Virus record (IMG/VR): IMGVR_UViG_2541047596_000007
Strand: one strand, 5' to 3'
DNA: 17,984 bases
DNA from: a virus
Taxonomy: Duplodnaviria; Heunggongvirae; Uroviricota; Caudoviricetes
The translations under genes were made by a program, and so were the position numbers. Below, in pieces: positions 935-17,984 of the stretch. Below the pieces are notes generated by a model. It made no database searches, had not been told where the DNA came from, and worked only from the letters and a program-made list of their open reading frames with translations. Each line of letters opens with the position of its first letter. The stretch's first letter is position 1.

Positions 935-2620
935 GTGAATATAAACGTCGCCGAATTGTTAAATGGGAATTACATTCTGTTATTATTTGTGGTCCTCGCG
1001 CTTGGGCTATGTCTCGGAAAGTTACGACTTGGTTCGATCCAACTGGGTAATTCCATTGGCGTTTTAGTCGTATCGCTGTTATTAGGCCAACAACATTTCA
1101 GCATTAACACCGATGCGCTTAATCTTGGCTTTATGCTGTTTATTTTCTGCGTCGGGGTCGAAGCCGGACCGAACTTTTTTTCCATTTTTTTTCGCGATGG
1201 GAAAAATTACCTAATGTTAGCACTGGTGATGGTTGGCAGTGCGCTGGTGATCGCCTTAGGGTTAGGTAAGCTGTTTGGCTGGGATATTGGCCTGACGGCC
1301 GGTATGTTAGCAGGCTCTATGACGTCGACACCGGTTCTGGTCGGTGCTGGCGATACACTGCGTCATTCCGGCATGGAAAGCAGGCAGCTCTCACTGGCAC
1401 TGGATAATCTGAGCCTCGGGTATGCCTTAACCTATTTAATCGGTCTGGTGAGTTTGATTGTTGGTGCGCGTTACTTGCCGAAATTGCAGCATCAGGACTT
1501 ACAGACCAGCGCCCAGCAAATCGCCCGCGAACGTGGCCTGGACACTGATGCCAACCGTAAGGTTTATTTACCGGTGATCCGCGCCTATCGCGTCGGCCCG
1601 GAACTGGTGGCCTGGACCGACGGCAAAAATCTGCGTGAACTGGGTATTTATCGACAAACCGGCTGCTACATTGAACGTATTCGACGTAACGGGATTCTGG
1701 CAAATCCAGACGGTGATGCCGTGCTACAAATGGGCGATGAAATAGCGTTGGTAGGCTATCCCGACGCCCATGCCCGACTCGATCCCAGCTTCCGTAACGG
1801 TAAAGAAGTTTTCGATCGTGACCTTCTCGACATGCGTATCGTCACTGAAGAAGTGGTCGTTAAAAACCATAACGCTGTAGGTAAACGTCTCGCACAACTG
1901 AAGTTGACCGATCACGGTTGCTTCCTTAACCGCGTCATTCGTAGCCAGATTGAGATGCCGATAGATGACAACGTCGTGCTTAACAAAGGTGACGTTTTAC
2001 AAGTCAGCGGCGATGCCCGCCGCGTAAAAACCATCGCCGATCGCATCGGCTTTATCTCGATTCACAGCCAGGTCACTGACCTGCTGGCATTCTGCGCCTT
2101 CTTTGTTATTGGGCTGATGATCGGGATGATCACCTTCCAGTTCAGCACATTCAGTTTCGGCATGGGGAACGCTGCCGGGTTGTTATTCGCCGGAATTATG
2201 CTGGGCTTTATGCGTGCTAACCACCCGACCTTCGGTTACATTCCGCAGGGTGCATTAAGCATGGTGAAAGAGTTCGGCTTGATGGTGTTTATGGCAGGCG
2301 TTGGTCTGAGCGCCGGTAGCGGTATTAATAACGGCCTGGGCGCGATTGGCGGTCAGATGTTGATTGCCGGATTGATTGTCAGTCTGGTGCCCGTGGTTAT
2401 CTGTTTCTTGTTCGGTGCTTATGTATTGCGAATGAACCGCGCGCTGTTGTTCGGCGCAATGATGGGCGCACGTACCTGCGCGCCGGCAATGGAGATCATC
2501 AGTGATACAGCTCGCAGTAACATCCCGGCGCTGGGCTATGCGGGCACCTATGCAATCGCCAACGTCCTGCTGACGCTGGCAGGGACAATCATCGTCATGG
2601 TATGGCCAGGATTAGGATAA
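935..2620 (+). CDS. ybjL: Putative transporter YbjL (AAE/YidE-YbjL family, TrkA-C domains)
   Basis: 561-aa ORF with hydrophobic N- and C-terminal halves flanking a soluble central region. Length and sequence are consistent with E. coli YbjL. Confidence 0.92.
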
Positions 2621-2732
2621 AACTGAAGTTGCCCTGAAAATGAAATTTTTTTGCACAACCGCAGAACTTTTCCGCAGGGCATCAGTCTTAATTAGTGCCA
2701 CTGCTTTTCTTTGATGTCCCCATTTTGTGGAG

Positions 2733-2776
2733 CCCATCAACCCCGCCATTTCGGTTCAAGGTTGATGGGTTTTTTG
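2733..2776 (+). terminator. Terminator-like hairpin in the ybjL-prophage junction
   Basis: CCCATCAACC (2733-2742) pairs with GGTTGATGGG (2760-2769), followed by TTTTTT (2770-2776). It lies 113 nt after the ybjL stop, where the prophage attR is expected. Confidence 0.4.
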
Positions 2777-2855
2777 TTGCCTGAAATTTAAGCTGTTTAA
2801 AATCATGATGTTAGAAGCACTGTTTTTTAACGATGGCGACAAAATGGCGGCAGCG

Positions 2856-3074
2856 TCAAAGAGAGAGCGCCACCTGTCCTGATTTCATTGGATGCGGCTG
2901 AACCGGATTTGACTCTTTTGGCGTTGCAATCGAACGAACAAAAGTTTCATGGGTAACAAAAGTATGGCTGCAGTTAATGTTCTGGCACTGGTTGTAACGC
3001 TCTTTGGTCAATGAAGATACCTGAAAACTGCTGCGAGTATGGGCGGCACTTCCACACAGTGGGCAAATCATCAT
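2856..3074 (-). CDS. ogr: Ogr/Delta-family late transcription activator (Cys4 zinc finger)
   Basis: CPLCGSAAH...CQNINCSHTF zinc-finger pattern like P2 Ogr. Start chosen at the internal Met (MMICPLCG), preceded by GGGGAGAA on the minus strand, giving about 72 aa as in P2 Ogr. Confidence 0.8.
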   Translation of the reverse strand: MMICPLCGSAAHTRSSFQVSSLTKERYNQCQNINCSHTFVTHETFVRSIATPKESNPVQPHPMKSGQVALSL

Positions 3075-3164
3075 TTTTCGAGTTCTCCCCATTTTTGCTA
3101 AATTCACAATAATGATACCGCATTATTCCATTTTGCAAACTTAAAAGTTCTCCATTGCGAAGAA

Positions 3165-4001
3165 TCATTCCATTTCGAAATCATCAATCCTCACTTCAAG
3201 CTCCAGACTGGTCGTAAAACCATTATCCGGGCTTACGGTATGCGTCAGAGTCGTAATGGTCCATTCCGCATCATCTATCGGCTGTTTAAAGCCACTGACT
3301 TTCACTGGCATTTCCGTGTAGAGATCTGCCCGCCCTTCCGCCAGTTGTAACGAGAATGACGCAACGCCGCGTTGCAGGCGTTCCCACTGCATTTTCGCCG
3401 CTCGTTCGGCGTTGCTCCGGTTGGCATAAGTGCGATTAAGTACCAGCACGTTTTCATCCGTACCCACCAGGTAATCGCCCTGCTTCGCTTCCGGCTCTTT
3501 CTTCTGCTTCTTAGTCCTGCGCTTACGCTTCACCGTGGTGCTTTCTTTCTTCGCGGGTTCGCGGGTATGCAACCAGCTGGCAATTACGCCCGTGTAGGCT
3601 CCGCGATCTGCCAGGGTAAAGCGGTGACTGTCGCCGTCCTTACGTGTGATAGTGATAACCGGTAGTGGTTTACCGCTGGCGCTTTTACCCTGTCCCTGCC
3701 GGATGAATAACAGATTGCCATTTTTCACCGACGCAATAGCACCGTACTGGCGCGCCAGCCGCATCAGAAAACTGCCGTCACTCTCATTGGTCTGGTCTAT
3801 ATGCTCCACGGGTTTATCCGACAGGTCTTCACCCAATGCCATCTTCAGTTTGTGCCGCGCAGATATTTCCTTCACGACTTCCCCAACGGTGGTCTTGTGC
3901 CACGATTTTTCACGGCGGGTATTCAGCGTTTCACGAAAATCAGCACTTCGCGCCCGGATAGTCAGGCGGTCCGGTGCGCCAGTGTGTTCAATCTCGTCCA
4001 C
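3165..4001 (-). pseudogene. P2 gpD-like tail protein, N-terminally truncated remnant
   Basis: The 278-aa ORF (TGAPDRLTIRARSADFRETLNTRRE...DQTNESDGSFLMRLARQYGA) matches the middle and C-terminal part of P2 gpD. About 100 N-terminal residues of the roughly 387-aa protein are missing and the upstream gene U is absent. Confidence 0.7.
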
Positions 4002-4329
4002 CGTGAATGCCCCTTTCGGGAAAAGCGGCTGCCCGATGAAGCAAGCCCGCGTCGCAGCAGTGCCAGTGGTGCGCCAGCCAGCCAGGACAACGCGCTGCTG
4101 GTTCGAGTTACTGCTGCCGTAACGGAAGGTAACATTTTGATACCCAGCACAGAGAATCCCAGACGGATCACTGCCAGCGGCCCCAGCACTGCAGCCAGCG
4201 CCACCGCTAAGGTGCCGAGGCCCACGGTAACGGCAGCCACCACAGCGGCTACTTTCATCAGTGTGCCTGTCAGTTCCGGGTTAGCTTCCACCCAGCGACG
4301 CAACGCCCCTGTGACCGACGCCGCACAAA

Positions 4330-4700
4330 ACCAGGAGGATGTGAACAACCTCCGCAACGCGATGAAAAGCGCCAAAGGCCCAGGTAACTTCCGCAACCTG
4401 TTTATGTACTCGCCTAACGGCAAAAAGGACGGGCTTCAGATCATCCCGTTGTCAGAAGTCGCGGCGAAGGATGAGTTTTTGAATATCAAGAACGTGAGCC
4501 GGGATGACATGATGGCGGCGCATCGTGTGCCGCCTCAGATGATGGGGATTATGCCGAGTAATGTTGGCGGGTTTGGGGATGTGGAAAAGGCTAGTAAGGT
4601 TTTTGTAAGAAATGAAGTAATCCCCTTACAGCAAAGAATCTGTGAAATCAACCGATGGTTAAATGACGATATAATAAATTTTAAAGAATATTCGATGTAA
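4330..4700 (+). pseudogene. Phage portal protein (P2 gpQ-like), C-terminal fragment only
   Basis: The last ~120 aa of ORF 3801-4700 (FRNLFMYSPNGKKDGLQIIPLSEVAAKDEFLNIKNVSRDDMMAAHRVPPQMMGIMPSNVGGFGDVEKA) resemble the portal C-terminus. The N-terminal part of that ORF is antisense to the gpD region and not portal-like. The left boundary is approximate. Confidence 0.5.
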
Positions 4701-4732
4701 AATTAAAGAGTCTCAAATGAGACTCTTTAATT
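4701..4732. terminator. Bidirectional hairpin between portal remnant and HNH gene
   Basis: Perfect 14-bp inverted repeat AATTAAAGAGTCTC / GAGACTCTTTAATT (4701-4714 and 4719-4732) with a 4-nt loop, lying between two convergent stop codons. Confidence 0.55.
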
Positions 4733-5400
4733 TAAGGAAGCATCGTATCAAAAACATCACGCAACGCAGTAGAGAATGGTCTGGGGTCTATTTCTTTATA
4801 ATACTCGTCTCGAAGTTCGTTACGGACACTATCATCATAAAGTCCCTCTTCGATGAACTCTTCAGCTGTAGAAACAAATCTCTCTATCAATGACCATGTT
4901 TCTGATATTGCATTGATGCGCTCAGTTTTCACGCCGCCCTTTTCACCATTCAGGTTAAAAACCCTTATAGTAACCTCAGCTCTTCGCTCATCGTTTCGCG
5001 ATAACCCCGGACGAATATCCATATTTCCATTAATAGCGAAATGGAAAAAATGTGTGGGGTCATCATTATCGGCCTTGATTAGGTCTTGCTCCTGATAGCT
5101 CTGTTCATCTTTGTAAAAACCGCAGTGATTATTTTCAGCACAAGAGCCGAACAAGTTTGACCATTCAAATGTTAAATGCCTATGCTGGCTTCTACGCAAA
5201 AAATGCTCGATATGCTTATCATCACTATTGTGAATATCTATTTTCCGCTCACAATACGCACATCTCTTCCCTTGCATTTCAACTAAACCGACCCAGACTA
5301 ATTGTTTATGTCGCCGTTTAAAAGCATTCCAGTCATGAATATTGTAGTCAAACTCGGCTAAAACACCTGGACCAATGGGATTTCTAGCAAGGAATTTCAT
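4732..5400 (-). CDS. HNH endonuclease, PtuB-like retron/Septu effector
   Basis: 222 aa with an HNH signature (CAYCERKIDIHNSDDKHIEHF ... CAENNHCG). The start overlaps the upstream ATPase stop in an ATGA junction. Confidence 0.8.
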   Translation of the reverse strand: MKFLARNPIGPGVLAEFDYNIHDWNAFKRRHKQLVWVGLVEMQGKRCAYCERKIDIHNSDDKHIEHFLRRSQHRHLTFEWSNLFGSCAENNHCGFYKDEQSYQEQDLIKADNDDPTHFFHFAINGNMDIRPGLSRNDERRAEVTIRVFNLNGEKGGVKTERINAISETWSLIERFVSTAEEFIEEGLYDDSVRNELRDEYYKEIDPRPFSTALRDVFDTMLP

Positions 5401-7052
5401 TGTTTAGATTCCTTATTGCCAGACTCACCCCGCACTTTGTCTTTTAGCTTTAATACACGAATTATACCATCACACTCAAGTAATAATGGGTGATCAATTC
5501 CATAATGCTTGTCTAACTTTTTCCTTATCATTATGGCTTCCTCCGAATCCTGCTGCCTGTTTTCAATAAATTTCTTATAAGTGCTCAGCCATGCGACTTC
5601 TTTTACATTAGGTACAGGATCTGTTTTCATCCCATAAAGCAAAGCGTACGAATTCTTAGTACCTTTTGTTTGAGATGATGGTAAAAGCACACGTAATTCC
5701 TTCATGCCTGTCGAAGGGTTTTTTATTTCCTCAAGGATGCGCAAGCATTTACTTGGAACTGTCGATACAATTTGAGGGCTATGAGTGGTAATTATGAATT
5801 GTACGTTAGGAAATGTATGCTGCAATTTCTCAATAATGTTTTGCTGCCAGCTTGGGTGCAAATGAAGATCAACTTCATCAATTAATACTATACCTTTCCC
5901 TTGAAGTGGATTATTTAACTTAGGATTCAGCAACACCAAGCGTCTTGTTAAATCCCCCACTAATGTAAGTATAGTTTTCTCCCCTTGAGAGAGTTGCTGG
6001 GCATCTAATAGTAAATCATCTTTTGCTAAAACTAAACGAACTTCATTTTCAGTATATTGAAGTTCAACAGAGCTAATTTCAGGAAGGAAATTAATTATTG
6101 CCCTTTTAACATTAGCAACAATATCTTTTGAACGACTTAAACCATTTGGTGTAGACGGTAACGTATTAAGAATCAACTCTTTATTAGCAATTTGTGTTTC
6201 TATATCTATTAATGTTCTTCTATCAACATCACTGAAAGATTTCAAAACCTCCAAAGATACCTTAAGCTTTGAGATATCAATAACAAGTTGATCTCTTTGT
6301 TTTTCTGGTATCAAGGACTCCTCAGACAATGCCTTATTATTAACAAATATAAACCAATTTAAAAACTCACCGAAGTCACGGCGATCAAACTCTATATCTT
6401 CATAAGCATCAAGCTTAGTCCATCGACGCACAGAATTATTAACATTTCTTTTATTATCTATGCCTGCACCATTTGAAGATCTTGATACAGAGTAATATGC
6501 AAGAACCGGAAGGCTTACATCTTCATAATATGAATTCACAACACGAAAGAATGACGCCATCTCTTTTATAGAAAGCAACTCATTATTTCTTTTTTGTGAT
6601 ACTCCATCTTTAACACGTGTAACTAAAATATTTGACGTTATTTTTTTAAGTTTAAACTGCGCAGTTATTGCAGCATAATTGACATCATTATGATTGTTAA
6701 TATCACCATCTTTTATATGAAAACCGCTTTTATCTTCTTTTTGAACATTTGCTCTAAACCAACTTAAAGCAATAAATAATGCTTCAAGAATGGTGGTTTT
6801 ACCGTAACCATTATCACCAACAAACACTGTTAGTTTTTTGTCGATCGAAACAAAAAGATCCCTGACTCTTTTATAGTCTGAGATGGCGACTTTATTTATA
6901 AGAAATGGTGCATCTTCAATTTCCTTATATAACGAAGATACCTCTTCAGGAATGTTCTCTTTACTGAATTCTAAACCATCTTCAGTTTTATTTACATAAG
7001 ACTGCAATAATGTACGAATGTCATTTGGTGATTTAGTATACTTTGAGTTCAC
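5397..7052 (-). CDS. ABC/SMC-like ATPase, PtuA-like retron/Septu partner
   Basis: 551 aa with Walker A (GDNGYGKTT), an ABC-signature-like LSQGEK, and Walker B/H-loop (VLIDEVDLHLHP). Overlaps the RT stop and the HNH start by ATGA at both ends. Confidence 0.82.
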   Translation of the reverse strand: MNSKYTKSPNDIRTLLQSYVNKTEDGLEFSKENIPEEVSSLYKEIEDAPFLINKVAISDYKRVRDLFVSIDKKLTVFVGDNGYGKTTILEALFIALSWFRANVQKEDKSGFHIKDGDINNHNDVNYAAITAQFKLKKITSNILVTRVKDGVSQKRNNELLSIKEMASFFRVVNSYYEDVSLPVLAYYSVSRSSNGAGIDNKRNVNNSVRRWTKLDAYEDIEFDRRDFGEFLNWFIFVNNKALSEESLIPEKQRDQLVIDISKLKVSLEVLKSFSDVDRRTLIDIETQIANKELILNTLPSTPNGLSRSKDIVANVKRAIINFLPEISSVELQYTENEVRLVLAKDDLLLDAQQLSQGEKTILTLVGDLTRRLVLLNPKLNNPLQGKGIVLIDEVDLHLHPSWQQNIIEKLQHTFPNVQFIITTHSPQIVSTVPSKCLRILEEIKNPSTGMKELRVLLPSSQTKGTKNSYALLYGMKTDPVPNVKEVAWLSTYKKFIENRQQDSEEAIMIRKKLDKHYGIDHPLLLECDGIIRVLKLKDKVRGESGNKESKQ

Positions 7053-7990
7053 ATCCCCTCCTCAGAAAAAAGCGCATGTATTACTTCTTTCCCATATTTA
7101 ATTTTCATTCTAGCAATAAATTTAGGCTCTATATATAAAGCATGTCCAACAAAGCCCTTAAGGCTTATAACATCCTCTTTAGCCAGTAAGCCTAGTGTAT
7201 ATTTATGCAGCAGAGAAGAAATCATTCTCTTCTTTTGCCTACCGAGCGAAAGCTCCCCATCAACTGTTAATGTCACACCTGTCACATGTCTATTATGAGC
7301 TTTAGACGTGAATACAGTTTTAGATTCATTTAAAGATATACCTTTAGCACATAATGATAATGCAAACCTTACTACTTTCGGGACCTCAAAAAGTATATTC
7401 TTCTCATCTGTAGAAAATGTAATATCATCAGCATACCTTGAATATGAAATATTCCTAACAGAGCACCAATTGTTTATATAATTATCAAAATCATACATTA
7501 CAAAATTACTAACAAAAGGTGAGGATGGCGCCCCAACGCTCAACACGAGAGTGATACTTCTTTTTTTTCCTGGTTTCCAGAAAAGAATCCCTTCTAAAAA
7601 CTCCTTATCCTCACCTGACAAAACAACCCCTTGAGAGCGAAGTTTATCAAATAAAAGAGCCGGTTTAATTTTATTGAAGAAATTCTGAAAATCCATTTTT
7701 AAAAGATAGGAGTTTGCCATATGGATTTTGGCATTGTCCTTAATTCCTATAGAAACTTTATAAGCTTTCGCTGCATCGTGCACGATGAGCTTGGAAGCCA
7801 AAATTTTCACAACCTCACGCTGAATTCGCTTTATCTCACTCGTTGGTTGAGCAATAAGCCTGAATCCACTTTGTCGTTTAGGAATTGTGTAGACTTTATA
7901 TTTTTTAGGCGCAACACTCGATAACCGCCTCAGCTCGTTAACGTTTACTCCAAGTTCTTTGCTAACAGCCGATAAAATTTCCATAAACAT
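7049..7990 (-). CDS. Retron-type reverse transcriptase
   Basis: 313 aa with RT motifs: LKMDFQNFF (motif A), GAPSSPFVSN (motif B) and RYADDITFS (YADD catalytic motif C). Its size and the adjacent structured ncRNA fit a retron RT. Confidence 0.88.
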   Translation of the reverse strand: MFMEILSAVSKELGVNVNELRRLSSVAPKKYKVYTIPKRQSGFRLIAQPTSEIKRIQREVVKILASKLIVHDAAKAYKVSIGIKDNAKIHMANSYLLKMDFQNFFNKIKPALLFDKLRSQGVVLSGEDKEFLEGILFWKPGKKRSITLVLSVGAPSSPFVSNFVMYDFDNYINNWCSVRNISYSRYADDITFSTDEKNILFEVPKVVRFALSLCAKGISLNESKTVFTSKAHNRHVTGVTLTVDGELSLGRQKKRMISSLLHKYTLGLLAKEDVISLKGFVGHALYIEPKFIARMKIKYGKEVIHALFSEEGM

Positions 7991-8270
7991 TCCGCTTGTG
8001 AGGCCCGCTTGCGCGGGCCGAGCTCTTCACTAAAGACAGCGAAAGCGACGAATTCCGCCTTCGTAAACTATGGCAACAGCCATAGGATGCGAAGGCGGAA
8101 TTCGTCGCTTTCGCAACCCTAAACTGAGCAATAAATTAGAGCCTGGCTTATCGCCCGGCTAGAACGCAATGGTTCCCTAACGCTAAAGAGCATAGGAATA
8201 CTAATGTTGCAACGAACAAATAGCAAGCCGGGCGCGCGCTCGTATCCCCGCCACGCCTGCCCGCTTTATG
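7991..8270 (-). ncRNA. Retron msr-msd non-coding RNA (boundaries approximate)
   Basis: Non-coding GC-rich region immediately upstream of the RT on the same strand. It contains the long msd hairpin (8039-8114), a 7-bp hairpin GGCCCGC-TTGC-GCGGGCC (8002-8019) and a long-range complement CGCCCGGCT (8152-8160) / AGCCGGGCG (8226-8234). I could not identify a1/a2 by eye. Confidence 0.55.
8039..8114 (-). repeat. msd stem-loop: perfect 25-bp inverted repeat
   Basis: GCGAAAGCGACGAATTCCGCCTTCG (8039-8063) is the exact reverse complement of CGAAGGCGGAATTCGTCGCTTTCGC (8090-8114). The 26-nt loop holds an inner 6-bp palindrome CTATGG/CCATAG (8068-8073 and 8080-8085). Confidence 0.85.
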
Positions 8271-8300
8271 TAGTGGTTTTCATGCACCTGCATGATCTAC

Positions 8301-8326
8301 GCAAAAGCCCGCCAGTTCTGGCAGGC
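8301..8326 (-). terminator. Candidate rho-independent terminator after the DinI-like operon
   Basis: On the minus strand, GCCUGCCAG-AAC-CUGGCGGGC forms a 9-bp stem with one G-U pair, followed by UUUUGC. Confidence 0.35.
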
Positions 8327-8460
8327 CTTAGCAAAAACGATCCTCAAACGATCATGCGATCTCATGCGGCATAGACATGCACCACAGAGCTAACGCCTCG
8401 CACAGCTCGTTGTTCAACCTTGCTGACGCCAGAAGCAAGTTCAGACGCCAGCAGCGTTTC

Positions 8461-8694
8461 TTAATGCAGCCAGCTGTCGTCTTCCCACACCTTCTGCATA
8501 ATTTTCATCACTTGTTTTCTTTCTTCGTCCAGTTGCAGTCCGGTCAGTTCCACACCGTTAGAGCTACCTTTGCGGATACGAATTACCGTTTTGGGATACA
8601 GGGGGCGCAGATTGCGGTAAAGCTCGGATTCAAGGGCGTCCAGGATAGACTGGCTAATCTTCTGCTCTTTATCGATCATTATTTCAATGCGCAT
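8461..8694 (-). CDS. DinI-family protein (77 aa)
   Basis: Start taken at the internal Met MRIEIMIDK, preceded by GAGGTG. The pattern MRIE...DAL..EL...W.DD.W parallels E. coli DinI (MRIEVTIAK...WESADDW). Confidence 0.78.
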   Translation of the reverse strand: MRIEIMIDKEQKISQSILDALESELYRNLRPLYPKTVIRIRKGSSNGVELTGLQLDEERKQVMKIMQKVWEDDSWLH

Positions 8695-8704
8695 AAAAGT
8701 CACC

Positions 8705-8893
8705 TCAGTTGATGACATCCATTGAGCGGTTGTATTCGTGGCTTCTGATTTTTGCCATGAGTTCATCTGTCAATTCAGAAACCCACTGCAGAGCCAGCCC
8801 CTTCTCTTCATCACTACACTCACTAGCCGCTACAAGCTTAAGAAAAAAATCAATGCGCTGGAGCTTCAAAGACTCCAAAAAATAGTCCTGCAT
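8705..8893 (-). CDS. Small hypothetical protein (62 aa), first gene of LexA-box operon
   Basis: Start chosen at MQDYFLESL because of a strong SD (GGAGGAAAG then ATG) and LexA boxes just upstream. The longer 96-aa reading would place the LexA boxes inside the coding region. Confidence 0.5.
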   Translation of the reverse strand: MQDYFLESLKLQRIDFFLKLVAASECSDEEKGLALQWVSELTDELMAKIRSHEYNRSMDVIN

Positions 8894-8919
8894 CTTTCCT
8901 CCTATGACACCACAAGCAA

Positions 8920-8954
8920 TACTGTATGCATAAACACTGTTTATATTTACAGTA
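8920..8954. promoter_or_regulatory. LexA (SOS) box plus adjacent half-matching box upstream of the small-ORF/DinI-like operon
   Basis: caCTGTttatatttACAGta (8935-8954) fits CTGT-N8-ACAG with an AT-rich spacer. The overlapping CTGTatgcataaACAC (8922-8937) is a near match. Confidence 0.6.
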
Positions 8955-9046
8955 TATAATAATCTTACTGATGTAAAACGTTTTTTTACGTTCATCAGCC
9001 TGATATGCCTGGTATTATTAAGAGCACGAATTGTTAACCCGCGTAA

Positions 9047-13181: not shown

Positions 13182-13345
13182 TTGTTCCCCCGTTTTTTCG
13201 TAGATAGTTCTGCCAGCAATTCATCTTGTGAACGGCATGGATGCCAGCGTTTACCATCCTCACCCATGATCCAGCCGTGACCGTAGTGCATTGCCGGGCT
13301 TTGCTTTACCAGCAGCGATGCAAATGATGGTTCTTTCGTAAGCAT
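13145..13345 (-). CDS. Hypothetical small early-operon protein
   Basis: Start chosen at the internal Met MLTKEP, just before the CII stop. The longer reading from 13375 would overlap CII by 23 nt. Confidence 0.45.
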   Translation of the reverse strand: MLTKEPSFASLLVKQSPAMHYGHGWIMGEDGKRWHPCRSQDELLAELSTKKRGNKWLLMALQQLFH

Positions 13346-13352
13346 AAGCACC

Positions 13353-13862
13353 TCACAGCAAACCGAATGAAGCACCGAGGCCAGTCACGGTATCAACTGC
13401 GCTCGCCATCGCAGGATTAGCCTGTAAACGGGCCTGCAATGAAACAGCAGCCAGCGCCATCAGTCGTGTTACAGAGTTAATGCTGCTGATAGCATCACGA
13501 CGACCTGCACTGGTTTTTACATCGCCAGATACCGCACCTGCAGCAACACGCCCGATCTCTGCGGTTGCACTCATGACGTAATGTGGCAGTTTCTCTTTTG
13601 CCACCTCATTAATTGGTACACATGGCAGACAATGAATCTGTGCCAGAAAACCATCTACCAGCGTTGAATCCTCAGTCAGATCGGTAAGCAGCCAGATGTC
13701 TGGTGCGGTTAATAAATGAGGTTGAGCTGGGTTCAGCTTGTTCCGCAGAATCTGCACATTCATGCCTGCACGTTCTGCCAGTTGCACCAGGTTGTGGCGC
13801 AACGCGAATGCACGACAGGCTTCATCAAAATGTGGATGTTTGGAAACTTGGTAATCAAACAT
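13353..13862 (-). CDS. cII: Phage 186 CII-like transcriptional activator
   Basis: Starting at [24 protein letters not shown]..., the protein has the length and residue pattern I recall for 186/Fels-2 CII. The ORF track's upstream extension is probably untranslated; AGGGGTG precedes the chosen ATG. Confidence 0.8.
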
Positions 13863-13894
13863 AGTCGACACCCCTGATATATCCCAAAATGGAA

Positions 13895-14116
13895 CTAGTT
13901 GAATACAACATTGCAATCAGTAAGTGCATCAACGGTAAGAGCAGCAAGGTTGATCATTACCTTTTCTCTTTTTTTGTCCTTCCGGAGACGATGGCGAATA
14001 AGACGTCCATCAGCCAGCATGTCATTGATGGTGTCGATAGATAAGCCAGTCAGTTCGCTGTATTTCTCAATAGAAACAGATGGAACAGCTAAGGTGATTG
14101 AAATATGTGGAGTCAT
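13895..14116 (-). CDS. Cox/Apl-like excisionase-repressor (small HTH protein)
   Basis: 73 aa starting at [39 protein letters not shown]. It is the first gene of the early operon, transcribed divergently from cI, as for 186 apl and P2 cox. Confidence 0.65.
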
Positions 14117-14241
14117 GATGCAAGATTCCTCGATTAACATGATGTGTGGTAACTGGTGATTAACACCGTCAAGTTCACTTTCGCACACATTAATTCTTCA
14201 TTTGAGAAGTGTCAACTCAATATTACTCAAAGGCGTACTAG
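14117..14241. promoter_or_regulatory. Immunity switch region (candidate early and repressor promoters and operators)
   Basis: A minus-strand TTGACA (top 14210-14215) with TAATGT 17 bp downstream is a candidate early promoter. Direct repeats GATTAACA (14132-14139 and 14158-14165) and the inverted repeat TTGAG-N9-CTCAA (14202-14220) are candidate operators. Confidence 0.4.
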
Positions 14242-15120
14242 ATGAATTTCAAAAACGGAGGACAGGCAGTCATAAAGCGCATGCTTGAAGCGTATGGATT
14301 CAAGACGCGGCAAGCCCTATGTGAACAGTTCAATGTATCTGCAAGTACTATGGGAACGCGCTGGATGCGTGACGCATTTCCTGCTGACTGGGTAATTCAG
14401 TGTGCAATTGAAACAGGAGCATCTATAGAGTGGCTCTCATTCGGAAAAGGCGTGCCATTTCCTAAGAATACCGAAGTTCCCGCTAAATTAGAGGAACCAG
14501 CATCATTGGTTCAATATGTTCCCAAAGCCACCACCAACGAGAACCCAATTGTGAACCATCCAAATCTGGATTCAGGTGGACGTAATGCGATAAACAGGCT
14601 AATGGAAGCGTATGGCTTTAAAACAAGACAAGAACTTGCCGACCATTTGAATGTGTCTAAAAGCACAATGGCGAATAGATACTTGCGAGACACATTCCCA
14701 GCTGACTGGATCATAAGATGCTCGTTGGAAACAAGAACTTCTCTTTTATGGTTAGCAACTGGGCGCGGGCAAAAACTTGGAAGCGAAGAAAGTGAAGCTT
14801 TAGAAATTCCTAAAGTAAAACTTATTGACAATCAAATTTTCGATGCTGGTCATTTATTGATAGATAAGTCCCTGCTTCCTCATTTTAATGATTTACTCGC
14901 AATTGAAGACGAACATTGCATAAATATTGCACACATGAATAAAGCTAATGTTGAAGACGGAAGATGGATTGTTCAATACCAAAATAATTTCAAGTTAAAA
15001 CAAATTTTTCTATTACCTGGAGGCAATCTTCGAGTAACAGACGATGATTTAACATTTGATTGTGAAAAAGAAGATATAAAATTAGTTGCCAAAATTTTCT
15101 CACAGTACCGTACTATTTAA
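14242..15120 (+). CDS. CI-like repressor with tandemly duplicated N-terminal CI-type HTH domains
   Basis: 292 aa. Residues ~5-70 (RMLEAYGFKTRQALCEQFNVSASTMGTRWMRDAFPADWVIQCAIETGASIEWL) and ~111-176 (RLMEAYGFKTRQELADHLNVSKSTMANRYLRDTFPADWIIRCSLETRTSLLWL) are homologous copies of the phage CI-repressor HTH fold, followed by a distinct ~115-aa C-terminal domain. Confidence 0.72.
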   Translation: MNFKNGGQAVIKRMLEAYGFKTRQALCEQFNVSASTMGTRWMRDAFPADWVIQCAIETGASIEWLSFGKGVPFPKNTEVPAKLEEPASLVQYVPKATTNENPIVNHPNLDSGGRNAINRLMEAYGFKTRQELADHLNVSKSTMANRYLRDTFPADWIIRCSLETRTSLLWLATGRGQKLGSEESEALEIPKVKLIDNQIFDAGHLLIDKSLLPHFNDLLAIEDEHCINIAHMNKANVEDGRWIVQYQNNFKLKQIFLLPGGNLRVTDDDLTFDCEKEDIKLVAKIFSQYRTI

Positions 15121-15135
15121 TCTTGAGGCATAGTA

Positions 15136-16164
15136 ATGGATTTTATAAAAAAACTCGAATTTGGAAATTATACTCTCCGTTTTGGTGATGATGTTTTGCT
15201 AGACTATTATGATGAAATTGTTTTCCCCTCTTTTTTGGAGATGGCAAACATCCGCAGAATATCTGACAAATCAGAGTTCTTTTTCATTGATACTGAATGC
15301 GTCATACTTGACGAAGAAGCAACACCCCCAGTACTCGGAATTAAAGGTCGGATTATTAAGAATACATTATTAACCAGAGAACAAGTATTTGATGGTGCTG
15401 ATTTGGTTGAAGATCATAAAGAGCTTGAAACAGCCCCGAGCTCTTTCTTTCTTCTAATATTAAACACTCACAGATTAATTCTTTGCAAGGAAGTTAGTGG
15501 TGCTCCCACAATTCAAAACTTTCAGTCAACAAGTCAGTGTTTCTTAAACATAGAATATGAAAAATACATATCTCATTTATACGAAACCGCACAAGAAGAA
15601 CGCAAAGAAAACCCTGACTTACCTCGAGTCACTAAAAAAAGCTTACGGAACGAAATCAAACGCCCGAAGCTAAGAATAACGCCGTTAACTGACAAACAAA
15701 GCCTAGAGCAATTTATTGATAATTTTAATAAAATCCAAAATGTCTCAGTAAAACTTCTCCCTACAAATCAAGAAGAAATTGATAACGACGAATTTTGGGA
15801 GTCGCTTGAAAGTGCCGGAGACGAAATGGGAAGTATTTCTACATCTATTCGCTTTTCAAACACCGATTCAGGCTTGAATCATGGTGCTGTTTTAGAACAA
15901 CTCACATCAGCAACCAGATTGGCTAATTCAGGAATAAATATTAAAGGATATGATGACAATGGTGATATAATCAAAGGTAGCAATGATGACTTTGTTTTGT
16001 TAAGTGAGATGAATGAATTATCAAAGGATACGGTAGTAGCTGCAAATGAAAGTTATGAGCGGTATGAAAATCTTGTAGAAGAAGGTAAGATATCTCTACC
16101 CCGTTCTCTTTCACAAAAGACGATTAGAATTATTAGCAATATATATGAAAGGTTTGGTCGATGA
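15136..16164 (+). CDS. Hypothetical soluble protein, unrecognised family (candidate exclusion/defence component A)
   Basis: 342-aa ORF 15 nt downstream of the cI stop, with GAGG about 8 nt upstream of the ATG. Visibly AT-rich compared with the phage core. No catalytic or NTP-binding motif recognised; two domains separated by a charged linker. Confidence 0.7.
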   Translation: MDFIKKLEFGNYTLRFGDDVLLDYYDEIVFPSFLEMANIRRISDKSEFFFIDTECVILDEEATPPVLGIKGRIIKNTLLTREQVFDGADLVEDHKELETAPSSFFLLILNTHRLILCKEVSGAPTIQNFQSTSQCFLNIEYEKYISHLYETAQEERKENPDLPRVTKKSLRNEIKRPKLRITPLTDKQSLEQFIDNFNKIQNVSVKLLPTNQEEIDNDEFWESLESAGDEMGSISTSIRFSNTDSGLNHGAVLEQLTSATRLANSGINIKGYDDNGDIIKGSNDDFVLLSEMNELSKDTVVAANESYERYENLVEEGKISLPRSLSQKTIRIISNIYERFGR

Positions 16165-16841
16165 TAAATAAAATAGATGCTAAAGAAATAACCAAAGAGA
16201 AAAACCTTTGGGATGTTTACTTGCTCTGCAAACGGATTACTATTAGTACATTCCATATTTGCATTTTGCTCACAGCATCTATTTTTTTATTAACAAACTC
16301 TTTTTTTATTGAGAAGGATATGTCTCATTTAGTATCTGACATTAGAAACTGGGCTTTGATTGGTTTTAACTTTGCAGTGACAACCTTAGGTTTTCTCATT
16401 GCTGGTTTCACAATATTTGCAACACTATCCAAACCCGAGATGTTTCTTCAGATGATGTCAATACAACATAAAAAAACACAGATGCCCACGTTAAAATATA
16501 ACTTTATGGCATTTATGAAAGTTTTCATCTCATTTATTACGTTTACTTTCATTTATCTAATAATAATTCTCTTTTGTCAAAAAGATGGAATAATTGGTAA
16601 TATAATTGATTTATTTCCATATTCAAAATCGATAAAAGAATTAATTATTAAATTTGGATACTGTGTTATAGGGACTAGCCTTATTTACTTAGTGTTAGTA
16701 GTAAAGACATTTATTTTTAATATCTACGCTATCATAATGAATAATATTCGTTGGGAGTTATACATTAAAAGAAAAGAACAAAGACTTTCCAGTAACAAAG
16801 AGACAATCAATAAAAACATAGATGTAACTAAAATGCATTAA
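16161..16841 (+). CDS. Hypothetical four-TM membrane protein (candidate exclusion/defence component B)
   Basis: 226 aa whose start overlaps the upstream stop by ATGA. Four hydrophobic segments of about 23-30 residues (approx. aa 26-50, 64-89, 115-139, 162-194). Very AT-rich. Confidence 0.7.
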   Translation: MINKIDAKEITKEKNLWDVYLLCKRITISTFHICILLTASIFLLTNSFFIEKDMSHLVSDIRNWALIGFNFAVTTLGFLIAGFTIFATLSKPEMFLQMMSIQHKKTQMPTLKYNFMAFMKVFISFITFTFIYLIIILFCQKDGIIGNIIDLFPYSKSIKELIIKFGYCVIGTSLIYLVLVVKTFIFNIYAIIMNNIRWELYIKRKEQRLSSNKETINKNIDVTKMH

Positions 16842-16931: not shown

Positions 16932-17984
16932 ATGGCAGTACGAAAACTCACCACAGGAAAATGGCTTTGCGAATGTTACCCCGCCGGACGTAGTGGACGT
17001 CGTGTGCGTAAACAATTCGCCACCAAAGGCGAAGCACTGGCTTTTGAGCGTCACACGATGGAAGAAACCGAAGCAAAGCCCTGGCTAGGTGAATCAGTGG
17101 ATCGTCGAACACTGAAAGACGTGGTTGAGCTATGGTTCAAACTACATGGTAAATCACTGACAGCTGGGCAGCATGTCTATGACAAATTGCTGCTGATGGT
17201 TGACGCTCTGGGCAATCCCCTTGCAACCGATCTAACCTCTAAAATGTTTGCCCACTATCGAGATAAACGCCTGACAGGTGAGATCTACTTCAGCGAGAAA
17301 TGGAAGAAAGGAGCAAGCCCGGTCACCATTAACCTGGAGCAAAGCTATCTAAGTAGTGTTTTTAGCGAACTATCCCGCCTGGGCGAATGGTCGTATCCGA
17401 ACCCACTGGAGAACATGCGAAAATTCACCATCGCAGAAAAAGAGATGGCATGGCTTACCCATGAGCAGATTGTTGAATTACTGGCTGATTGCAAACGTCA
17501 TGACCCAATTCTGGCACTGGTAGTTAAGATATGCTTAAGCACAGGCGCACGCTGGCGAGAAGCCGTAAATCTTACTCGTTCACAGGTGACCAAATACCGA
17601 ATTACCTTTGTAAGAACGAAGGGGAAGAAAAACAGAAGCATCCCTATCAGTAAAGAGCTTTACGAAGAGATCATGGCGCTTGATGGGTTCAATTTCTTCA
17701 CAGACTGCTATTTTCAATTTTTATCCGTGATGGAAAAAACGTCTATCGTCCTCCCTCGCGGTCAACTGACACACGTTCTGCGCCATACGTTTGCGGCGCA
17801 TTTCATGATGTCGGGTGGAAATATCCTTGCTTTGCAAAAAATCCTCGGACATCACGATATAAAAATGACTATGCGTTACGCTCATCTGGCACCGGATCAT
17901 CTGGAAACGGCGCTCCGTTTCAACCCTCTGGCAACGCTGCCAAGTGGCGACAAAGTGGCGGCAGCGGTTGGCATTACCCCGTAA
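16932..17984 (+). CDS. int: P2/186-type tyrosine integrase
   Basis: 350 aa with the tyrosine-recombinase catalytic pattern: R in STGARWREA, HxxR in HVLRHTFAAHF, and the tyrosine in MRYAHL. The N-terminus resembles P2 Int (MAVRKL vs MAIKKL). The stop codon is the last triplet of the window. Confidence 0.9.
   Translation: MAVRKLTTGKWLCECYPAGRSGRRVRKQFATKGEALAFERHTMEETEAKPWLGESVDRRTLKDVVELWFKLHGKSLTAGQHVYDKLLLMVDALGNPLATDLTSKMFAHYRDKRLTGEIYFSEKWKKGASPVTINLEQSYLSSVFSELSRLGEWSYPNPLENMRKFTIAEKEMAWLTHEQIVELLADCKRHDPILALVVKICLSTGARWREAVNLTRSQVTKYRITFVRTKGKKNRSIPISKELYEEIMALDGFNFFTDCYFQFLSVMEKTSIVLPRGQLTHVLRHTFAAHFMMSGGNILALQKILGHHDIKMTMRYAHLAPDHLETALRFNPLATLPSGDKVAAAVGITP

Follow-up and report, generated by a model that had tools for sequence, protein, structure and literature searches.

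Coliphage 186 provides the reference lysis-lysogeny switch unlike that of lambda: its CI repressor forms a 14-mer wheel (a heptamer of dimers), acts on face-to-face promoters and on the distal sites FL and FR, and reads two types of operators with a single helix-turn-helix (HTH) domain. What, then, is the role of two such domains in one chain of a CI protein of the same family? The question is raised by the cI gene at positions 14242..15120 (stop codon included, plus strand) of a 17,984-nucleotide stretch of Caudoviricetes DNA, the virus record IMGVR_UViG_2541047596_000007, which is called the window throughout. The gene encodes a two-headed 186-type CI repressor of 292 residues. The reading favored here over that of a single-chain pseudo-dimer, with about an even chance of being correct, is that the protein is a conventional CI carrying an extra, tethered head of different specificity. 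A natural two-headed relative of this kind offers a direct route to how dual recognition and long-range bridging work in 186-type repressors.

Domain Organization of the Repressor

The gene was delineated from the list of open reading frames (ORFs) and by Pfam, and its product is WP_001009712.1, labeled 'phage repressor protein CI' in the annotation of near-identical E. coli genomes. An earlier note made from the DNA alone had described two diverged HTH copies in its single ORF, and both self-alignment and Pfam bear this out. When residues 1-100 were compared with residues 101-292 by BLASTP, residues 2-70 matched residues 108-176 with 38 identities over 69 positions (55%, E 2e-31), and the PF07022 profile (Phage_CI_repr, cutoff 22 bits) recognizes two stretches of the protein (E 1.7e-59). 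A hidden Markov model (HMM) made from both copies places them at residues 5-70 and 111-176, coordinates identical to those given before. The first, HTH1 (14254..14451, plus strand; HMM and structure prediction), has the recognition helix SASTMGTRWMRD and is the added N-terminal head. It is followed by a linker of residues 71-110 (14452..14571, plus strand), which is disordered according to the predicted structure and to the alignment of two-headed proteins, and then by HTH2 (14572..14769, plus strand), the head proximal to the C-terminal domain, which was defined by the HMM, by alignment with 186 CI and by structure prediction and has the recognition helix SKSTMANRYLRD. The chain ends with a hinge (residues 177-187) and the C-terminal oligomerization domain (CTD; residues 188-292), together 14770..15117 on the plus strand, assigned by Foldseek and by a match to PF16452 (Phage_CI_C) at residues 188-285 (E 2.2e-16).

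The DNA of the two HTH copies is 59% identical, with 65, 79, and 33% identity at codon positions 1, 2, and 3, respectively. Because synonymous sites are saturated, the copies are old, in agreement with the earlier view that no recent duplication is involved. The AT-rich trend toward the 3' end, also pointed out before, is real: the GC content is 0.49 in HTH1, 0.44 in the linker and in HTH2, and 0.31 in the hinge and CTD, and it is 0.35 and 0.28 in the cargo genes that follow.

A monomer model was computed with AlphaFold2 from an input alignment of 43 sequences. It contains two five-helix HTH domains, with helices within residues 7-67 (HTH1) and 113-173 (HTH2), and the second copy is thus predicted to have a fold compatible with DNA binding. 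The block-mean predicted local distance difference test (pLDDT) is ~74-89 in HTH1 and ~83-92 in the CTD, which is β-rich at residues 186-290, and it is below 50 at linker residues 75-108. With a predicted template modeling score of 0.39, the domains seem to have no fixed position relative to one another. The modeled CTD superposes on the CTD of 186 CI (2FKD_A) with a template modeling (TM) score of 0.90 and a root-mean-square deviation of 1.5 Å over 108 columns, as determined with Foldseek, and 186 CI (2FJR) aligns by sequence only to window residues 115-290. Since 2FJR matches this part alone and the CTD superposes on 2FKD, HTH2 and the CTD are the counterpart of the whole 186 CI, and HTH1 is an addition.

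An internal start that would yield a single-HTH isoform was considered and rejected as a conserved feature: no conserved in-frame methionine is visible within the linker of the aligned two-headed proteins, and inspection of the window sequence revealed no obvious ribosome-binding site before HTH2. Directly 5' of the cI ATG, at 14209-14244, lies the in-frame remnant GTG TCA ACT CAA TAT TAC TCA AAG GCG TAC TAG, which reads V-S-T-Q-Y-Y-S-K-A-Y-stop. Its counterpart in other CIs, by homology, is the N-terminal lead M-S-T-x-K-Y-P-N-E. Where this lead is present, the ATG overlaps the -35 element of pR (ATGTCAA, that is TTGACAT on the opposite strand). The cI start has apparently been shifted 11 codons downstream in the window lineage.

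Distribution of Two-Headed CI Proteins

The close relatives considered were the best 120 clusters at 90% identity (121 sequences with the query). Two HTH domains are found in 46 of these clusters (47 of 121 including the query), 44 of which are full length and two of which, P0049 and P0050, are truncated. In none of these two-HTH relatives does a stop codon separate the copies, and no relative splits them into two genes. The order is constant, with HTH1, a linker of 36-52 residues (mostly 39-43), HTH2, and a hinge and CTD of ~115-123 residues in most. When HTH2 alone was searched against 1.84 billion representatives at 50% identity, at least two matching stretches were present in 35 of the best 150 matches. 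At least three of these 35 are not two-headed CIs: P0185 and P0221 have no PF07022 match, and P0231 is a 340-residue protein with four tandem HTH_3 domains. The latter shows that Cro/CI-type HTH domains also occur in longer tandem arrays, in proteins beyond the 186 CI family. More distant two-headed proteins occur in Pantoea, Citrobacter, Hafnia, Edwardsiella, and Shewanella, all with PF16452 except the Shewanella protein. Among sequenced phages, Klebsiella phage 4LV2017 (CI of 313 residues) and Salmonella phage PSP3 (CI of 286 residues) combine two PF07022 domains with PF16452. A scan of species-representative genomes, which served as a comparison set of single-HTH loci and not as a census of two-headed ones, yielded two two-headed CIs among 80 loci, mostly of the single-HTH kind.

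The two-headed layout is thus common in databases and is detected automatically by Pfam, and its fold, family, and genomic role are those of 186 CI. Full-text literature searches found no account and no functional study of a tandem PF07022 or two-HTH CI repressor. The sole comment found concerns PSP3, the CI of which was said to owe its extra length to 'a longer C-terminal domain' (PMC3448106, Nilsson and Haggard-Ljungquist 2011, Discussion). According to Pfam, the extra length is a second N-terminal HTH domain, and this appears to have gone unrecognized in that work, as the length was put down to the C-terminal domain. There is a consequence for annotation, since the two-headed proteins are labeled just as CI repressors. 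They are common in prophages of E. coli, Klebsiella, Salmonella, Citrobacter, Pantoea, and Edwardsiella, and they also offer a view of how immunity specificity may change through module swapping.

Could the arrangement nevertheless be an artefact, or a sign of decay, by mis-assembly, by frameshift fusion of neighboring cI genes, or as a pseudogene in a dead prophage? The window prophage is truncated and its late genes are reduced to fragments, which would suit decay. However, of 5426 complete E. coli genomes, 13 have the cI region at ≥99.7% identity, and the prophage looks complete in at least one of them (H1, ETEC4091). In addition, the two-HTH ORF is continuous in the related clusters described above and in phages PSP3 and 4LV2017, and the ratio of nonsynonymous to synonymous substitutions (dN/dS) is ~0.1 on both heads. 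On these grounds this explanation has a practically negligible probability and was excluded, and the earlier statement that the gene is no assembly artefact stands.

Origin of the Gene by Recombination

The two heads have different histories. In a neighbor-joining tree of 166 HTH domains, window HTH1 lies inside a clade of 206-residue single-HTH CIs (e.g., P0052 and P0058) and outside the main HTH1 clade of other two-headed proteins, and window HTH2 clusters with the other HTH2s and with single-HTH CIs of 195-199 residues. A tandem duplication in this lineage, as the idea of a covalently duplicated domain implied, is unsupported, because HTH1 and HTH2 fall in different CI lineages. BLASTP gave ~81% identity to P0058-type proteins over about the first 76 residues of the query, and the apl-switch-HTH1 segment is 70.6% identical in DNA to an E. 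coli prophage with a 206-residue CI (L003) inserted at the same chromosomal site. The last ~15 linker residues are homologous to the N-terminal lead of the 195-199-residue single-HTH proteins (K-Y-P-N-E-I...).

From position 14540 to its end at 17984, the window forms one unbroken match, at 85.2% DNA identity, to the K. aerogenes locus L006, where a complete single-HTH cI of 197 residues is followed by the same cargo genes of 342 and 226 residues and by int. The match starts 13 nt inside the L006 cI ORF, and it covers the window protein from residue ~100 onward. On the other side, window positions 13190-14764 are 90.6% identical to L002, an E. coli locus for a two-headed CI of 297 residues, and the similarity breaks thereafter. 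Beyond the 13 genomes mentioned above, 18 further E. coli genomes match the cI region at 87.7%, only as far as ~14762-14764, which is the end of HTH2. L002, the one record of this group that was examined, has a different CTD past HTH2 and different cargo (an AAA ATPase and DUF4276). Because of the tree placement and of these DNA matches, the gene is best understood as a complete conventional cI with an extra 5' head, the modules of which later recombined.

The earlier proposal that the repressor is chimeric and was acquired together with the downstream cargo can be kept for the CTD and, with some reservation, for HTH2, in view of the match to the single-HTH cI, cargo, and int of K. aerogenes. 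The same cargo pair follows a single-HTH cI in the K. aerogenes loci L006-L008, and, judging from these alignments, it is co-inherited with HTH2 and the CTD.

Selection and Recognition Helices

Purifying selection acts on both heads. In the comparison of the window with its 297-residue relative of L002, dN/dS is 0.11 for HTH1 and 0.10 for HTH2, vs. 0.30 for the linker, and among 43 aligned two-headed proteins the mean pairwise identity is 72% for HTH1, 77% for HTH2, 34% for the CTD, and 17% for the linker. Both heads retain the recognition-helix family motif S-x-S-T-[ML]-x-x-R-[YW]-x-R-D. Within a given protein, the recognition helices of HTH1 and HTH2 are unlike in the window, in all 43 aligned proteins, and also in 16 more distant two-headed proteins with two scorable helices. 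The HTH1 helix is SQSTMANRYARD in 27 of the 43. The same two helix types can occur in opposite order, as in P0022 and P0046. In the PSP3-like class (PSP3, Pantoea, Edwardsiella), the HTH2 helix is conserved ([ST]-[ST]-[GA]-T-[IM]-S-x-W-[IV]-R-R), whereas that of HTH1 is widely variable.

The Switch Region and Candidate Operators

The divergent partner of cI is apl (73 residues, 13895..14116, minus strand), annotated 'regulator' in near-identical genomes. The window apl has no Pfam match, and a weak Phage_Cox match is on record for its homologue in L003. The apl-cI switch region (125 bp, 14117..14241, unstranded) contains candidate face-to-face promoters. No promoters or terminators were called in it by a consensus scan, and the promoters were placed by homology to the 186 record and by hexamer position. 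Candidate pR, on the minus strand, has a -35 element TTGACA at 14210-14215, a 17-nt spacer, and a -10 element TAATGT at 14187-14192; candidate pL, on the plus strand, has a -35 element TTGAAA at 14098-14103, inside apl, a 17-nt spacer, and a -10 element CAAGAT at 14121-14126. The motifs TTGAAAT and TGTCAA are conserved across the loci compared. In the GenBank annotation of the 186 record (U32222), three CI sites cover pR within the 57 bp directly upstream of cI, FL lies inside cI at codons 90-95, and FR lies at the end of apl. Two operator types can be told apart, TCTCTCAATTGGGAGA for the pR sites and ATTCAC-N5-GTGAAT for FL and FR.

The switches of single-HTH loci (L057, L061, L064, and L071) were compared with those of main-clade two-headed loci (L009, L010, and L089-L091). 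They are collinear and mostly identical, and they differ at two blocks flanking the pR core. These blocks are GTCCCCAAATGGGAAC and, in the first cI codons, GTACCCAAATGAGATC in the single-HTH loci, vs. CTTCACAAAWCGGAGAA and AACACATTTCGCCAT in the two-headed ones. The HTH of the former and the HTH2 of the latter have the common helix SKSTLANRY[LM]RD. The simplest reading is that the pR-flanking sites of the two-headed loci are read by the added head, HTH1. The main-clade proteins of the five two-headed loci also have a 22-residue basic N-terminal extension (M-S-T-x-K-N-T-F-R-H...), in which the codons TTT CGC CAT are identical in 5/5 loci despite variation at other synonymous sites. As one of the two blocks unlike the single-HTH switches, this stretch may be an operator embedded in coding sequence.

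In the window itself, alignment points to a candidate CI operator block, GTTCACTTTCGC (14173..14184, plus strand), just downstream of the -10 element of pR. It lies ~36 bp from the -35 element, the same distance as the TTCACAAAWCGG block (TTCAC block) of other two-headed loci, and it resembles the TTCACTTT half of 186 FL and FR. The hexamer GTTCAC, which was chosen post hoc, occurs three times within 14173-14556, and its 12 occurrences in the whole window vs. 7.45 expected are not significant.

These data bear on the notion that HTH1 no longer binds DNA and has become a protein-interaction module, for instance a docking site or decoy for a LexA-controlled antirepressor of the Tum type or for Apl. 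The flexible tether of HTH1 would suit such a role. So would a small ORF and the DinI-like gene that follows it on the downstream side of the replication gene (8461-8995, minus strand), in an arrangement resembling the split tum of PSP3 and Fels-2. On the other hand, the HTH1 helix keeps the family motif and ranks with the best-conserved stretches of the chain, the HTH1 helices of the PSP3 class vary as immunity determinants do, and the pR-flanking blocks change along with the presence of HTH1. A loss of DNA binding is therefore considered very unlikely.

Clear operators were found by a palindrome scan of eight loci in single-HTH relatives, namely a perfect 18-bp palindrome, ACTTTCCATTTGGAAAGT, in L003 and GTACCCAATTGGGAAC in L006. 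Generic searches of 13700-14800 for repeats and palindromes returned only short repeats at chance level. Across more loci, the best palindrome in the 150 nt upstream of the first HTH scored alike, with means of 6.53 of 8 for 81 single-HTH loci and 6.25 of 8 for eight two-headed ones. Since these scores show no useful difference, it is not claimed that two-headed loci are devoid of symmetric operators.

Operator symmetry matters to the proposal, made in the earlier note, that the protein acts as a single-chain pseudo-dimer, in which HTH1 and HTH2 of one chain would occupy the half-sites of one asymmetric operator and replace the pair of N-terminal domains of a dimer. Each chain does hold two HTHs, joined by a linker of sufficient length to span to a neighboring major groove, and heads that are always unlike would suit asymmetric operators. 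No strong pR palindrome was seen in the two-headed loci examined, and the central pR sequence of the window, ATTCTTCATTTGAGAAGT, is symmetric at 5 of 8 positions by manual inspection, as compared with the perfect site of L003. There is also a precedent, in that one phage repressor has been described to contact an asymmetric site with two of its domains while being monomeric (PMC9283540). Nevertheless, the CTD and the hinge to HTH2 are fully conserved. A dimer would therefore display at least four heads, with the HTH2 pairs keeping the palindrome geometry of single-HTH relatives. Furthermore, the linker of ~40 residues is disordered and hypervariable rather than a short, fixed connector, the heads have been swapped independently and even reversed in order, and the palindrome scores do not set two-headed loci apart. 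With the CTD retained, helices that differ in all 43 proteins, and both orders in existence, the pseudo-dimer is not favored and appears unlikely.

Returning to a conventional CI with an added head, a second candidate site is found inside the gene. The operator-like element ACCCAATTGTGAAC (14543..14556, plus strand), located in linker-coding DNA by pattern match, may be a distal CI site comparable to FL. It fits exactly a search pattern built from the L006 pR palindrome and the window element, and related two-headed loci have at its position TCCCAATTGAGA, which is the core of the central pR operator of 186. An element of the CCCAATTG type lies directly upstream of HTH2 in six loci: GAACCCAATTGTGAAC in the window (14541-14556), GAACCCTATTGGGAAC in L002, GTTCCCAATTGAGAC in L009, GTTCCCAATTGAGAT in L010, GTCCCCAATTGAGAAC in L089, and GTCCCCAAATGAGATC in L092. 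Its distance from the cI start is ~300 bp in the window and ~355 bp in L009 and L089, and it has up to 12 nt in common with the central 186 pR operator. An ancestral operator sequence of the CCCAATTG type thus seems to survive just upstream of HTH2, as a candidate FL-like site. The proline codon of the element is CCA in 10 of 11 loci, a count that includes the equivalent codon in five single-HTH proteins with the N-terminal lead, and the preceding codon always ends in C, with an amino acid that varies among F, S, N, and Y. The peptide x-P-[IN]-[EG] is present in 23 of 31 two-headed proteins with an ANRY HTH2 helix and in none of seven with an ATRY helix, numbers that are uncorrected for kinship. 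These patterns hint at a constraint at the DNA level.

A Model for Two-Headed Repression

How might the two heads work together? Residues ~98-292 constitute a full conventional CI, in which the N-terminal lead is followed by HTH2, the short hinge, and the oligomerizing β-domain, and to which HTH1, with its unlike recognition helix, is attached N-terminally through the disordered tether of ~40 residues. From comparative sequence, the two heads are proposed to read two classes of operators. HTH2 would keep its canonical geometry on the CTD dimer or wheel, together with its ancestral preference for palindromes of the CCCAATTG type, one copy of which would serve as its site in the linker-coding DNA ~300 bp from pR, where 186 has FL. 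HTH1, presumably inherited with the apl-cI switch DNA, would read the operators flanking pR and so set immunity specificity. The heads would thus probably serve promoter-proximal and distal sites, respectively, and the CTD oligomer would bridge both kinds of sites, as 186 CI bridges pR and FL/FR. New combinations of heads, and new modules of CTD plus cargo, may arise by recombination within the conserved HTH-coding DNA.

In its most specific form, this model holds that the dual recognition that 186 CI exerts with one domain (pR-type vs. FL/FR-type) has been split over dedicated heads, that the gene carries a built-in looping site for HTH2 in its own linker-coding DNA, and that recombination in HTH-coding DNA shuffles heads, CTDs, and defense cargo. 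This version is put forward as a tentative possibility, with the chances clearly against it. If it is true, such shuffling creates new immunity and cross-immunity specificities.

Several observations weigh against the favored reading. The operators of two-headed CIs are putative, and the assignments of heads to sites are inferred. AlphaFold2 is silent on inter-domain contacts and is compatible with a packed pair of HTH1 and HTH2. The HTH1 of the window clade differs from that of the two-headed proteins in the switch comparison, and the pR-proximal DNA of the window closely resembles the operators of neither parent. In the eight-locus scan no convincing palindrome was found in the window, and a search for 17-mers common to the pR, FL-like, and FR-like zones, which recovered the known FL/FR pair of 186 as a positive control, found none in the window and a weak one in L002. 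As for the intragenic element, it is degenerate in L090 and L091, no such element was seen in PSP3, and the switch and linker of PSP3 have no obvious shared operator motif. Finally, the loci behind the codon and co-variation counts are phylogenetically related, so that descent or a constraint at the peptide level could explain these counts.

A functional variant of the two-specificity model is that the heads confer dual or cross-immunity. They would then recognize the operators of two heteroimmune 186-like groups, keeping the own prophage silent and blocking superinfection by the second group, which could be the prophages with 206-residue CIs that share the rcdA-side attachment site. Such a role would agree with the ~81-85% identity between HTH1 and the HTH of these 206-residue CIs, one of which, P0052, was traced to E. 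coli prophages that likewise occupy the rcdA/ybjJ locus, and with the 75-81% identity of HTH2 and CTD to 195-197-residue CIs of another group. The state of the window prophage, a remnant that has retained its immunity region and defense cargo, would also fit. However, the GGAAAGT palindrome of L003 and the CCCAATTGGG palindrome of L006 are both absent from the window switch, and small differences in the helices (A/T at position 2, M/L at position 5) could alter specificity. Cross-immunity is thus regarded as quite improbable.

Relation to Known Systems

With coliphage 186 CI, the window protein shares the HTH family (PF07022) and the CTD family (PF16452), as well as the fold of the CTD. The loci correspond too, with the order cII-apl, cI, int, a cI gene divergent from apl, and candidate face-to-face pR and pL at equivalent places. 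The differences are that 186 CI has one HTH and 192 residues, whereas the window CI adds an HTH and a linker of ~40 residues before the 186-like part, and that the single head of 186 CI is annotated for both operator types, whereas the window CI has two unlike heads.

The CI of PSP3 (NP_958086.1) and its relatives in SEN1, Midge, SW9, and SI22 likewise have two PF07022 domains followed by PF16452 and are encoded between the switch and int. The PSP3 and window proteins are collinear over 274 residues, with an identity of only 28%. In this class the linker is shorter (25-31 residues) and the helix motifs are of the SGTISTWVRRD type, and PSP3 has an unrelated protein where Apl would be. The CI of Klebsiella phage 4LV2017 (Elveevirus) and those of the ST437-OXA245phi4.2 group belong to the main enterobacterial clade, with the same domain composition. 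The 4LV2017 protein is 42% identical to that of the window, and its gene is followed by a cargo gene and then int, as in the window. This main clade differs by its 22-residue basic extension and by an HTH1 of the SQSTMANRYARD type, the window HTH1 being of another lineage.

Two DNA-binding domains are also covalently joined in one chain in engineered single-chain repressors (434, Arc, Cro), which have identical or designed heads, short linkers, and no oligomerization domain. The window protein, in contrast, has naturally unlike heads and a long, disordered tether, and it keeps its CTD.

The mycobacteriophage immunity repressor referred to above, which binds its asymmetric site as a monomer, resembles the window protein in having in one chain two DNA-contacting modules of unlike specificity. 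As described, it differs in that its folds are unrelated (an HTH and a second, non-HTH domain), that it is monomeric, and that it has no 186-type CTD (PMC9283540).

Prophage Context and Cargo

The prophage is 186-like (P2 family) and is located between ybjL/RybB and rcdA in E. coli. On the minus strand, the order is replication gene A, dam, several small ORFs, fil, cII, and apl, followed on the plus strand by cI, two cargo genes, and int. The window ORFs, Pfam, the near-identical genomes, and U32222 agree in placing cI divergent from apl-cII-fil and upstream of int, as in 186-type CI loci. The CII gene (CP76, by Pfam) occupies 13353..13916 on the minus strand. The AT-rich cargo pair, predicted as ORFs at 15136..16841 (plus strand), encodes a 342-residue protein and then a hydrophobic protein of 226 residues, for which no Pfam or PADLOC match was obtained.

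The cI-int junction is a cargo hotspot in relatives (L002, L006-L008, L091, L092, L094, and L095). Besides the AAA and DUF4276 genes of L002, it harbors DUF4747 and a 201-residue protein in L091, an OLD-family AAA_15/TOPRIM nuclease in L092, one hypothetical gene in 4LV2017, and DUF2511 in PSP3, and no cargo in the prophages with 206-residue CIs. Because the junction is a hotspot for defense-type cargo, recombination in cI also moves cargo.

A complete retron of the type I-A/Ec78-like kind is present at 4732-8191 on the minus strand. It comprises the msr RNA (8123-8191; Rfam RF00170, 55.1 bits), the reverse transcriptase (7049-7990; PADLOC RT_I-A, 3e-131), a PtuA-like ATPase (5397-7052), and a PtuB-like HNH nuclease (4732-5400), all on the minus strand. 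In the near-identical ETEC4091 prophage, the position of the retron is filled by RloB and an AAA ATPase, and at least 80% of window 2500-9000 was matched in only one of the 5426 complete E. coli genomes.

The truncated state of the prophage, with late genes in fragments, is apparent at 935-4700. The host gene ybjL, which encodes an Asp-Al_Ex permease (935-2620), and the RybB small RNA (2700-2778, 105 bits) are directly followed by a portal-protein fragment (3801-4700), and a late-control gpD gene is annotated in related genomes under the match to this last region.

Of the pair at 8461-8995 on the minus strand, the DinI-like ORF (PF06183, 2e-22) lies directly downstream of the small ORF (8705-8995, minus strand), which has no Pfam match. 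A split tum, consisting of an antirepressor and a DinI homologue, has been reported for PSP3 and Fels-2 (PMC3121763). By analogy, the arrangement in the window suggests SOS induction via an antirepressor.

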